Notes under the pieces: model-generated
What the model saw: only the letters and a program-made list of their open reading frames with translations
What the model was told of the DNA's origin: nothing
Databases searched by the model: none
Source of the DNA: Escherichia coli
GTDB lineage: Bacteria > Pseudomonadota > Gammaproteobacteria > Enterobacterales > Enterobacteriaceae
Length of the DNA: 64,000 nt
NCBI RefSeq assembly: GCF_003334405.1
Contig: NZ_QOWM01000002.1
Strand: one strand, 5' to 3'
In this document: positions 20,759 to 26,898 of the stretch, piece by piece
Layout: every line of letters starts with the position of its first letter
Position numbering within the stretch: position 1 is the first letter of the stretch
Translations under genes and position numbers: made by a program

Positions 20759-21411
<653 letters not shown>

Positions 21412-21412
<1 letters not shown>

Positions 21413-21705
21413 TGAGCGAGTCACTGAGCTGGATGCAGACGGGTGACACGCTGGCGTTATCCGGAGAGCTGGATCAGGACGTTTTGCTACCGCTTTGGGA
21501 AATGCGTGAGGAAGCGGTGAAGGGGATTACCTGCATCGATCTTAGCCGTGTCTCCCGCGTGGATACGGGGGGACTGGCACTGCTGCTCCATCTTATCGAT
21601 CTGGCGAAAAAGCAGGGCAACAATGTGACGCTTCAGGGGGTAAACGACAAAGTGTATACCCTGGCGAAATTGTATAATTTGCCTGCTGATGTTCTGCCTC
21701 GTTAA
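21412..21705 (+). CDS. mlaB: STAS-domain protein MlaB
   Basis: Track ORF 21316..21705; ATG at 21412 gives 97 aa MSESLSWMQTGD...; 1-nt overlap with mlaC stop. Confidence 0.9.
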
Positions 21706-21864
21706 ATTTTTTCAGGCCGGATATGGCGTTAACCGCCTGTCCGGCAAACCTGCCTGCAAGTCGAGCCTTGTCTGATTTATCAGCGAGGCTTTTTGCTTAT
21801 TTATGCCAGCGCAACTTTGCTCTAAGATGTTTCGCTGGTTTATTAACTGATGATTGAAGATCCC

Positions 21865-22119
21865 ATGGAAAATAATGAAATTCAGAGCGTGTTGATGAAC
21901 GCTCTCTCCCTCCAGGAAGTCCACGTTTCCGGCGATGGCAGCCACTTTCAGGTTATTGCCGTGGGTGAGTTGTTTGACGGCATGAGTCGGGTTAAAAAAC
22001 AGCAGACGGTCTATGGTCCGCTGATGGAATATATTGCGGATAACCGCATTCATGCTGTGTCGATCAAAGCGTATACCCCTGCGGAGTGGGCGCGCGATCG
22101 CAAACTGAACGGCTTTTGA
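21865..22119 (+). CDS. ibaG: BolA-family acid stress protein IbaG
   Basis: Track ORF 21850..22119; ATG at 21865 gives 84 aa [15 protein letters not shown]... Confidence 0.9.
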
Positions 22120-22173
22120 GCTATGGGCGATTCGCCGGTAGCGGATATGAATTGTTAACTGAGAACAAACTAA

Positions 22174-23433
<1,260 letters not shown>

Positions 23434-23449
23434 TCGTCTGAGAGCTGGC

Positions 23450-23467
23450 AGCCCCGTTCGCGGGGCT
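23450..23467. terminator. GC-rich hairpin between convergent murA and sfsB (candidate bidirectional terminator)
   Basis: AGCCCCG-TTCG-CGGGGCT perfect 7-bp stem; no adjacent U-tract on either strand, so function uncertain. Confidence 0.35.
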
Positions 23468-23480
23468 ACCGCCAGACCAC

Positions 23481-23759
23481 TCATTTTTTCGGTTTAGTGT
23501 AGCTACGCATCAACTGCGTTCTGTCGATAAACTCATGGGTCTGCGGATCATGGTAGCGTGATGGCCAGATAACCCAGGGGTCAGTTCCCAGGGCTTTCGC
23601 AATAATCATCTCTCCTTTCGGCCATGGGCGCGATAATGCATTCGCCAGCGTTGAGGAACTCAAACCATTTCTGCGAGATTCCGCCGCCATTGACGTTCCC
23701 TTCTTGCGCAAACCCGCAATGATGTCAGCGGGATGCCAGTCAATGAAATTACTTTCCAT
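23481..23759 (-). CDS. sfsB: Ner-like DNA-binding protein SfsB (Nlp)
   Basis: 92 aa ORF MESNFIDWHPADIIAGLRKKGTSMAAESRRNGLSSSTL... Confidence 0.93.
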   Translation of the reverse strand: MESNFIDWHPADIIAGLRKKGTSMAAESRRNGLSSSTLANALSRPWPKGEMIIAKALGTDPWVIWPSRYHDPQTHEFIDRTQLMRSYTKPKK

Positions 23760-23956
23760 TTTTCCTCACTCCTTAAGTTAGTCGCTTTCATTCAGAACAC
23801 TTCTTCTGTCGAGCATCACTATACTCCTGATGGCCTATTGCTCTAAAAAGTTCCTGTAAAGAGTGTGAATATTCAGAATATATAAAGATGCACATCCCTA
23901 TTTTTCAGGTGTTATAGAGCTGAATAAGTGTTTTTATGGAACTTACTGGAACCATC

Positions 23957-23979
23957 CCGCGCGCTGCGCGGGATGAGGG
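23957..23979 (-). terminator. palindromic GC hairpin just downstream of ispB stop
   Basis: ATCCCGCGCGCTGCGCGGGAT-like inverted repeat immediately 3' of ispB; no clean U-tract. Confidence 0.3.
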
Positions 23980-23986
23980 GAGGGGA

Positions 23987-24958
23987 TTAACGATCGCGTT
24001 GAACAGCGATGTGCGCGAGGCCGATGAGTGCTTCTCGCCAAGGGGTGTCCGGGAGCACCTGTAACGCTGCGATGGCTTTGTCTGCTTCTTCCTCGGCACG
24101 CTGACGCGTCCATTCAAGAGATCCACAAGCGTTCATTGCTTCCAGAACCGGTTCCAGAAGATGGCGACCGTTACCCTGTTCGATGGCGGTACGGATCATC
24201 TGTGCCTGTTCTGGTGTGCCATGATGCATCGCATGCAGCAGCGGCAGCGTCGGTTTACCTTCGTTCAGATCGTCGCCGACATTTTTACCTAACTGTTCGC
24301 CATCGGCATTGTAATCGAGTAAATCGTCGATCAACTGGAAAGCAGTGCCGAGATAGCGCCCATAATCCTGCAGGCCTTTCTCCTCCTCCGGCGTACAGCC
24401 AGCCAGAATCCCGGAACACTGCGCGGCAGCCTCAAACAGACGCGCGGTTTTGCTATAGATAACGCGCATGTAGTTTTCTTCAGTGATGTCCGGATCGTTA
24501 ACGTTCATCAGTTGCAGAACTTCACCTTCTGCGATGACGTTTACGGCTTCTGACATGACTTCCAGCACTTTGAGCGAACCGAGGCTGGTCATCATCTGGA
24601 AAGCGCGGGTATAAATAAAATCGCCTACCAGCACGCTGGCGGCATTGCCAAATGCGGCGTTGGCGGTAGCTTTACCCCTGCGCATATCTGATTCATCCAC
24701 AACGTCGTCGTGTAGCAGAGTCGCCGTGTGGATAAACTCGATCAGGGCAGCAATGGTGACATGCGCATTTCCCTCATAGCCAACAGCTCGTGCAGCCAGT
24801 ACAGCAATCATCGGACGAATACGTTTACCGCCGCCGCTGACGATGTAATAGCCTAACTGATTGATCAGTTGGACGTCGGAATTAAGCTGCTCAAGGATTG
24901 CCGCATTAACACCCGCCATATCTTGCGCGGTTAACTCATTGATTTTTTCTAAATTCAT
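23987..24958 (-). CDS. ispB: octaprenyl diphosphate synthase
   Basis: 323 aa ORF with polyprenyl synthase DDxxD motifs (LLHDDVVDESD, QLIDDLLDY). Confidence 0.96.
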   Translation of the reverse strand: MNLEKINELTAQDMAGVNAAILEQLNSDVQLINQLGYYIVSGGGKRIRPMIAVLAARAVGYEGNAHVTIAALIEFIHTATLLHDDVVDESDMRRGKATANAAFGNAASVLVGDFIYTRAFQMMTSLGSLKVLEVMSEAVNVIAEGEVLQLMNVNDPDITEENYMRVIYSKTARLFEAAAQCSGILAGCTPEEEKGLQDYGRYLGTAFQLIDDLLDYNADGEQLGKNVGDDLNEGKPTLPLLHAMHHGTPEQAQMIRTAIEQGNGRHLLEPVLEAMNACGSLEWTRQRAEEEADKAIAALQVLPDTPWREALIGLAHIAVQRDR

Positions 24959-25115
24959 CGCAAAAGCCGGGCTTTTCGCCCCGATTACCTTACTGTGAAC
25001 AAAGGCAACTTAGGGTTTATGGTTAGGAATATAGGGTGATTGTACTGAAAAAATGGCACAGATAAACGTTACCGTACAAGTTGTGTTTTTTTTCTTCGTG
25101 TATTGACTGTAGCAC

Positions 25116-25144
25116 TTGTCAAAGGCGTGCGTTTTGCGTAATAT
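25116..25144 (+). promoter_or_regulatory. sigma-70-like promoter upstream of rplU
   Basis: TTGTCA, 17-nt spacer, TAATAT, about 70 bp upstream of the rplU ATG. Motif match only. Confidence 0.4.
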
Positions 25145-25180
25145 TCGCGCCCTATTGTGAATATTTATAGCGCACTCTGA

Positions 25181-25806
<626 letters not shown>

Positions 25807-25932
25807 GTTTTTCGCGTCCCGGTAACGGATGAAAGCCCCGCAACACGTTGCGGGGCTTTTTACATTCGATAACCGGTAAAAATGCGCATGGTGCGACGTT
25901 AATCCGCAAATGCGCTTTGCAGGGAATACGGT

Positions 25933-26898
25933 ATGAAGCAGCAGGCAGGCATTGGCATTCTTTTGGCGCTCACCACAGCAATTTGCTGGGGGGCGTTGCC
26001 AATCGCAATGAAGCAGGTGCTGGAGGTGATGGAACCTCCGACAATCGTGTTTTACCGTTTCTTGATGGCGAGTATTGGCCTGGGTGCCATTCTTGCGGTG
26101 AAGAAGAGGTTGCCGCCATTACGCGTGTTTCGTAAGCCACGCTGGTTGATTTTGTTGGCAGTGGCGACCGCCGGGCTGTTTGGGAACTTCATCCTGTTCA
26201 GCTCATCCTTGCAATACCTGAGTCCGACCGCTTCGCAGGTGATTGGGCAACTCTCGCCAGTTGGCATGATGGTTGCCAGCGTATTTATCCTCAAAGAGAA
26301 AATGCGCAGCACTCAGGTTGTAGGGGCATTGATGCTCCTGAGCGGCCTGGTGATGTTTTTTAACACCAGTCTGGTCGAGATATTTACAAAGCTCACCGAT
26401 TACACCTGGGGAGTTATCTTTGGGGTCGGTGCGGCGACGGTTTGGGTGAGTTATGGCGTGGCGCAAAAGGTTTTATTGCGTCGGCTGGCCTCACCGCAGA
26501 TCCTGTTTTTACTGTACACTTTATGTACAATTGCGCTCTTCCCTCTGGCAAAGCCTGGAGTGATAGCGCAGCTTAGCCACTGGCAGCTCGCATGTTTAAT
26601 TTTTTGCGGACTGAATACCTTGGTAGGATATGGCGCCCTGGCGGAAGCGATGGCTCGCTGGCAGGCAGCGCAGGTGAGCGCGATCATCACGCTCACCCCA
26701 CTGTTTACGCTGTTTTTTTCAGATCTTTTATCACTGGCCTGGCCCGATTTCTTCGCCAGACCGATGTTAAACCTTTTAGGTTATCTCGGTGCGTTTGTCG
26801 TGGTTGCGGGCGCGATGTATTCCGCCATTGGTCATCGTATTTGGGGCGGATTACGTAAGCATACAACGGTGGTATCGCAACCCCGCGCAGGCGAATGA
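25933..26898 (+). CDS. yhbE: EamA/DMT-family inner membrane transporter YhbE
   Basis: 321 aa polytopic membrane ORF. Confidence 0.92.
   Translation: MKQQAGIGILLALTTAICWGALPIAMKQVLEVMEPPTIVFYRFLMASIGLGAILAVKKRLPPLRVFRKPRWLILLAVATAGLFGNFILFSSSLQYLSPTASQVIGQLSPVGMMVASVFILKEKMRSTQVVGALMLLSGLVMFFNTSLVEIFTKLTDYTWGVIFGVGAATVWVSYGVAQKVLLRRLASPQILFLLYTLCTIALFPLAKPGVIAQLSHWQLACLIFCGLNTLVGYGALAEAMARWQAAQVSAIITLTPLFTLFFSDLLSLAWPDFFARPMLNLLGYLGAFVVVAGAMYSAIGHRIWGGLRKHTTVVSQPRAGE

Follow-up and report, generated by a model that had tools for sequence, protein, structure and literature searches.

Work by Dar and Sorek (2018) describes a class of Rho-dependent transcripts with sharp 3' ends right after stable stem-loops that carry no U-tail. 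As outlined there, termination in this class is diffuse and downstream, the transcript is trimmed by PNPase and RNase II back to the stem-loop, the mRNA is stabilised, and the sequence beyond the stem-loop contains more C than G. A second class was described by Ju et al. 2019 and the Liu laboratory (bioRxiv 10.1101/2022.10.23.513370) in an 'overlapping bidirectional terminator' model, with polymerase collisions proposed to act at E. coli stem-loops that lie between convergent genes and are unlike intrinsic terminators. The hairpin between murA and sfsB of E. coli is like the Dar and Sorek class in that a stable GC stem-loop lies just upstream of a sharp steady-state murA 3' end, with neither a U-rich tail nor an upstream A-tract, and in that C exceeds G downstream and read-through is bicyclomycin-sensitive. 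It is unlike that class in being common to two converging genes with a mapped end on one strand, and unlike the REP-derived cases in being homologous to, and putatively descended from, an intrinsic terminator. With the class of Ju et al. it shares its place between convergent genes and its lack of resemblance to an intrinsic terminator; that class is reported to be Rho-independent with paired overlapping ends, whereas here we find Rho dependence on both strands and only a murA end catalogued. We put at roughly 60% the probability that the 3' end of murA is set and protected by this hairpin, and that the hairpin itself is not the terminator.

The elements of the locus are given below in coordinates of the window, by which we mean the whole 64,000-nucleotide stretch of DNA analysed.

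22174-23433, + strand: coding sequence of murA, which lies upstream and has its mRNA 3' end at the hairpin
23481-23759, - strand: sfsB (nlp) coding sequence, the converging gene
23434-23480: murA/sfsB gap, 47 bp from stop codon to stop codon
23450-23467, both strands: core hairpin AGCCCCG-UUCG-CGGGGCU, from sequence and fold, homologous across Enterobacteriaceae

A preliminary description of this DNA had noted the core hairpin in the 47-bp convergent gap, and its coordinates, sequence, 7-bp stem and 4-nt loop were all confirmed, so that the hairpin as noted there is real. The stem (AGCCCCG and CGGGGCT around TTCG in the DNA) is perfect and contains 6 G-C pairs, and the loop reads UUCG in the murA-sense RNA and CGAA in the sfsB-sense RNA. 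Either strand of the hairpin folds with an energy of -12.8 kcal/mol, a stability that 0 of 200 dinucleotide shuffles reached. The absence of an adjacent U-run on either strand, also reported earlier, holds as well: directly beyond the core stem the + strand reads ACCGCCAGAC over 10 nt, with 0 U, and the - strand reads GCCAGCUCUC, with 3 U. There is no upstream A-tract, a scan for consensus promoters and terminators called no site at the hairpin, and the U-tail score, counted from the last G-C pair and hence from one nt before the stem end, is about 0.9 here versus 4-5.5 in the canonical orthologues. As a candidate for a canonical intrinsic terminator the element has the GC-rich stem-loop, but it has neither the U-rich tract nor the independence of Rho.

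The same arms do occur in a canonical setting elsewhere in the window. At 52740-52764 on the + strand, AGCCCCG...CGGGGCT are part of a 9-bp stem with a 7-nt loop that is followed by TTTTTTT, with an ORF ending at 52697, and this hairpin is a canonical intrinsic terminator that provides an in-window contrast to the U-less murA hairpin.

RNA 3' ends have been mapped in MG1655 by Term-seq (Adams et al. 2021, eLife, PMC7815308), and the region around the hairpin in our window is identical to that of E. coli K-12 MG1655 (NC_000913.3 position = 3358668 - window position, the window + strand being the K-12 minus strand). In Supplementary file 1 of that study (PMC7815308) 'primary' murA 3' ends are given at 3335196(-) in LB at OD 0.4, with an average count of 40640, and at 3335194(-) in M63 at OD 0.4, with an average count of 23548.

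23472 (LB OD 0.4) and 23474 (M63 OD 0.4), + strand: dominant Term-seq 3' ends of murA mRNA (Adams 2021)

These ends fall 5 and 7 nt past the core stem, and the flanking sequence printed with them includes the murA/sfsB hairpin. For LB at OD 2.0 (stationary phase) the Term-seq list of Adams 2021 (PMC7815308) contains no murA 3' end, and for sfsB it contains no dominant 3' end at the hairpin. The check by Term-seq that had been proposed with the preliminary description was borne out on the murA strand by the ends at 23472 and 23474; on the sfsB strand no end is listed.

A murA 3' end 5-7 nt past the stem is also near the expected point of release in hairpin-driven termination, and this brings in the idea that the U-less hairpin pauses or destabilises RNA polymerase directly, perhaps together with NusA/NusG or through convergent collisions (head-on plus trailing). 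We regard this as possible but unlikely. In its favour the hairpin lies between convergent genes, is symmetric and is equally stable on both strands; moreover, upstream DirectRNA-seq counts are similar for the two genes (105 and 119), which indicates that both are transcribed. A collision, however, is at odds with the Adams 2021 list (PMC7815308), in which no paired sfsB 3' end appears at the hairpin, and with the response of the locus to Rho inhibition.

Rho termination regions were derived in Supplementary file 2 of Adams 2021 (PMC7815308) from DirectRNA-seq with and without bicyclomycin, and one such region bounds a read-through zone on each strand.

23476-23852, + strand: zone of murA-sense read-through across the antisense of sfsB, bounded by the Rho region K-12 3334816(-)
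23298-23449, - strand: zone of sfsB-sense read-through across the antisense of the murA 3' end, bounded by the Rho region K-12 3335370(+)

The murA-sense Rho region corresponds to window position 23852, 380 nt downstream of the murA end, and has upstream/downstream counts of 105/25 without and 119/142 with bicyclomycin (Rho score 5.0, p = 1.8e-11; PMC7815308). That of the sfsB sense corresponds to window position 23298, antisense to murA and 183 nt beyond the sfsB stop, with counts of 119/12 without and 161/127 with bicyclomycin (Rho score 7.8, p = 9e-14; PMC7815308). With bicyclomycin the downstream/upstream ratio consequently rises from 0.24 to 1.19 in the murA sense and from 0.10 to 0.79 in the sfsB sense, the downstream counts being open to some inflation by the pervasive transcription that bicyclomycin brings about. 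When Rho is inhibited the downstream signal is thus about equal to the upstream signal on both strands, which suggests that without Rho little termination is left at the murA/sfsB site. The proposed test of bicyclomycin sensitivity is answered positively by the data of Adams 2021, read-through downstream of the hairpin being sensitive on both strands. The restoration of downstream signal on both strands also speaks against a collision, the class so explained being described as Rho-independent.

Rho seems to act about 150-380 nt downstream and not at the hairpin, a placement that is only rough given that Rho scores use 800-nt windows, and these same windows are compatible with some polymerases releasing at the hairpin. 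Base composition after the hairpin was compared with the mean C/G over the window of 0.91. In the murA sense the first 50 nt have a C/G of 1.67, and other 50-nt bins have 1.9 and 2.0; in the sfsB sense the ratio is 2.43 over the first 50 nt and reaches 3.0 at 23349-23300, a C-rich and G-poor stretch directly before the Rho region at 23298. Such an excess of C over G beyond the hairpin, present on both strands, matches the rut-like signature that was expected, and it is modest and patchy.

We propose the following course of events for a hairpin that protects the murA 3' end after Rho termination downstream of it. RNA polymerase leaving murA would cross the hairpin and produce a modestly C-rich, untranslated RNA antisense to sfsB; Rho would load on this read-through RNA and stop transcription within a few hundred nt; and the 3'-5' exonucleases PNPase and RNase II would shorten the heterogeneous tails as far as the GC hairpin, leaving a sharp and stable murA end at 23472-23474. 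Transcription of sfsB would likewise cross the hairpin, and Rho would stop the polymerase inside the antisense of murA. By analogy with the Dar and Sorek class we infer that trimming, and not release at the hairpin, would produce the murA end, and that the stem-loop would lengthen the life of the murA mRNA. The hairpin probably has the same role for the sfsB mRNA, less visibly; since the published list gives no dominant 3' end of sfsB there, we claim protection for the murA strand only.

The preliminary description had suggested a protective 3' stem-loop or a Rho-assisted stop in place of a classical intrinsic terminator. For murA this agrees with the mapped end and the Rho region, and for sfsB the agreement extends to Rho dependence only. 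Of its two options, the protective stem-loop is the better match: dependence on Rho stands on both strands, but Rho appears to act about 150-380 nt downstream, which fits a Rho-assisted stop located at the hairpin less well.

Pairing beyond the core has to be considered too, and with it a further way of ending the murA transcript.

23444-23472, + strand: 11-bp stem with interruptions, an extension of the core that is open to RNA with the mature murA 3' end, from a fold of RNA 23420-23472
23484-23489, + strand: U6 run inside the sfsB coding sequence, candidate U-tract of a weak composite terminator

In the predicted fold of an RNA ending at 23472, the pairs G44-C72, C45-G71, G47-C70 and G48-C69 add to the 7-bp core to give a stem from G23444 to C23472, and the murA end at 23472 is flush with the base of this predicted extended stem. 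In an alternative register to the G44-C72 pairing, CTGGC and GCCAG (23445-49/23471-75) lengthen the stem across an ACC bulge, with an energy of -20.5 kcal/mol. The U6 run lies 16 nt beyond the core stem and adjoins a weak outer helix UGAG/CUCA (23439-42/23480-83), and on the other strand it codes for the C-terminal Lys-Lys of sfsB.

These elements could be read as a composite intrinsic terminator, in which a helix at 23439-23483 (7 bp inner, 5 bp middle, and the outer UGAG/CUCA) is used together with the U6 run and the product is then trimmed to 23472-23474; we consider this improbable. The predicted minimum fold of -24.2 kcal/mol has its base abutting UUUUUU with a tail score of 4.5, and Escherichia relatives retain U5-U6 with an outer helix that is partly different (TAGC/GCTA in E. 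albertii and E. whittamii), all of which would be in keeping with such a terminator. The outer helix, however, contributes only about 3.7 kcal/mol, across internal loops of 2 and 4 nt, and a helix base that is split by internal loops is poor for termination. The Term-seq list has no end at 23489-23492, and the ends it does give lie 10-17 nt upstream of the U6; the sfsB Lys-Lys codons account for the U-run; and the bicyclomycin read-through speaks against efficient factor-independent termination.

We surveyed the site beyond E. coli through an SfsB scan of representative genomes, which gave 80 loci, or 81 with the K-12 locus. The convergent arrangement of murA and sfsB is retained in 74 of the 81, of which 71 could be scored, and a strong GC hairpin is present in the gap in all of these 71 Enterobacterales loci. 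An alignment of 40 gaps contains a homologous element GGCAGCCCCC...GGGGGTTGCTGTT, in which RNAalifold finds a homologous stem with compensatory double changes in 6 of 8 pairs, so that it is the structure rather than the sequence that is maintained. In several loci (Enterobacter, Leclercia, Silvania and others) the script that picks the GC core took a short internal stem, and these were judged from folds and alignment instead. The comparison shows evolutionary maintenance of the stem.

The sequence next to the stem differs between genera. Distant genera, including Kosakonia cowanii, Buttiauxella, Cedecea, Mangrovibacter, Atlantibacter, Rosenbergiella and Shimwellia, have bidirectional intrinsic terminators made of A-tract, stem and U-tract in the murA-sfsB gap, 7-9 of every 10 tail bases being U; the tails of Salmonella, Citrobacter, Klebsiella and Enterobacter are moderately rich in U, typically with 4-6 U in 10 on the murA side; and in five Escherichia species the tail is CUACCGCCAG, with almost no U, and the loop is cut to four bases. 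The Escherichia copy is therefore like canonical bidirectional intrinsic terminators in its position and in the homologous stem of the orthologous gaps, and unlike them in having neither U-tract nor A-tract and in its bicyclomycin-sensitive read-through. Two gaps in the survey are enlarged, that of Phytobacter massiliensis to 154 bp, with a REP-like palindrome GCCGGATGCGGCGCTAAAACGCCTTATCCGGGCTAC, and that of Huaxiibacter chinensis to 503 bp, starting with a canonical terminator AAAAGCTCCCGCCATGGCGGGAGCTTTTTTTT.

Changes in the flanks of the stem were also seen within Escherichia. E. albertii, E. whittamii and one divergent strain (loci L003, L004 and L057) have GATAGC...AGGCTAC in place of GAGAGC...AGACCAC, and these co-changed flanks create the TAGC/GCTA pairing and with it a longer outer helix than that of the window (23439-23483). 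Judged on the alignment, this co-change may reflect selection on the extended stem.

Within E. coli a 211-bp query over the hairpin site has matches in 5426 of 5426 complete genomes. Two haplotypes of the 47-nt gap, the UUCG form of the window (4726 genomes) and a second form (693), together make up 5419 of the 5426, and 5154 of the 5419 genomes that match either haplotype do so at an identity of at least 99%. In the one strain whose sequence we used for the second haplotype, the sole difference in the hairpin is at the second base of the loop, UACG versus UUCG (23458), accompanied by G-to-A at 23442 outside the hairpin, and the hairpin stem is identical in all eight E. coli strains aligned. 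ViennaRNA gives the two loops equal energy in the G-C-closed context of the murA hairpin. Both loops of the murA-sense hairpin are ones that we take to be of the UNCG type, and the loop polymorphism may then preserve an extra-stable UNCG loop.

How often a stem of this kind would arise without any function was estimated from the window, where perfect GC-rich stems of at least 7 bp number 11 versus 8.3 +/- 2.9 in simulated first-order Markov sequence. A chance palindrome, or a decaying relic without present function, would be in line with this near-simulated frequency and with the loss in Escherichia of the U-rich tail that is present in relatives. Against it, the probability of such a stem in a given 47-bp gap is about 0.006 (47 x 8.3/64000), the hairpin is present in 71 of 71 scored orthologous gaps with compensatory changes, the stem is constant in the E. 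coli strains examined while two haplotypes cover almost all genomes, and the dominant murA RNA 3' end maps to the hairpin. Conservation combined with the mapped RNA end rules out chance for the hairpin, and we hold a functionless palindrome or relic to be extremely improbable.

Membership in a known family of elements was considered and rejected for several candidates. As a repeat family the hairpin has one partial match elsewhere in the window, with 3 mismatches, and it occurs at a median of 1 place per E. coli genome and at 2 at most. With REP/BIME 3' stabilisers it has in common that it is an extragenic palindrome at an mRNA 3' end, but it is single-copy with no second copy in the window, lacks the REP consensus and is marked by no repeat in the K-12 annotation. 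When 21000-26000 was searched against Rfam with E up to 10, no family reached its gathering threshold, and the best overlap, F6 sRNA, scored 20.4 bits versus a gathering threshold of 46, with E = 4.1.

Other hairpins lie near the locus. At 23953-23975 there is a perfect 10-bp GC-rich hairpin, CATCCCGCGC-GCT-GCGCGGGATG, 12 nt past the stop codon of ispB (23987, - strand); the bases that follow it on the ispB strand, GUUCCAGUAAGUUCC, contain no U-tract, and it may be a second U-less 3' hairpin. The gene ispB is absent from all supplementary tables of Adams 2021 (PMC7815308). Between mlaB and ibaG a stem-loop GAGCCTTGTCTGATTTATCAGCGAGGCTTTTTGC occupies 21766-21794 on the + strand, and Adams 2021 (PMC7815308) lists an 'orphan' Term-seq end at K-12 3336874(-), which is window position 21794, 71 nt upstream of ibaG, with a Rho score of 1.25 and an intrinsic terminator score of 2.6. 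The local terminator scan made no call at this stem-loop, and a weak, sub-threshold Rfam match to naRNA4 (REP-derived) at 21715-21772 overlaps it.

In a search of the literature we found no paper that discusses the murA/sfsB terminator individually; the murA 3' end figures only in a published table, and the only paper that names both sfsB and murA does so for a delta-sfsB strain used as a cloning handle. The murA hairpin is an ordinary instance of a known and described mechanism. The locus is a possible test case for tools that predict 3' ends and otherwise has little importance beyond annotation, for which it carries the caution that the GC hairpin between murA and sfsB should not be annotated as an intrinsic terminator. 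Across the family the orthologous gaps form a series of terminator turnover at one locus, from a canonical bidirectional terminator through a weak U-tail to a U-less hairpin with Rho. We can also speculate, as a quite unlikely extension, that the Escherichia lineage started from a bidirectional intrinsic terminator whose U-tracts disappeared and whose stem-loop shrank to a hairpin with a UNCG cap, that termination of both genes passed to Rho, and that read-through is regulated and couples murA and sfsB. If this were true, murA antisense running through sfsB and sfsB antisense running into the essential murA would couple the two genes via Rho activity and transcriptional interference. Trimming back to a protective hairpin, for its part, would account for the defined and stable mRNA 3' end of the essential cell-wall gene murA without a classical terminator.
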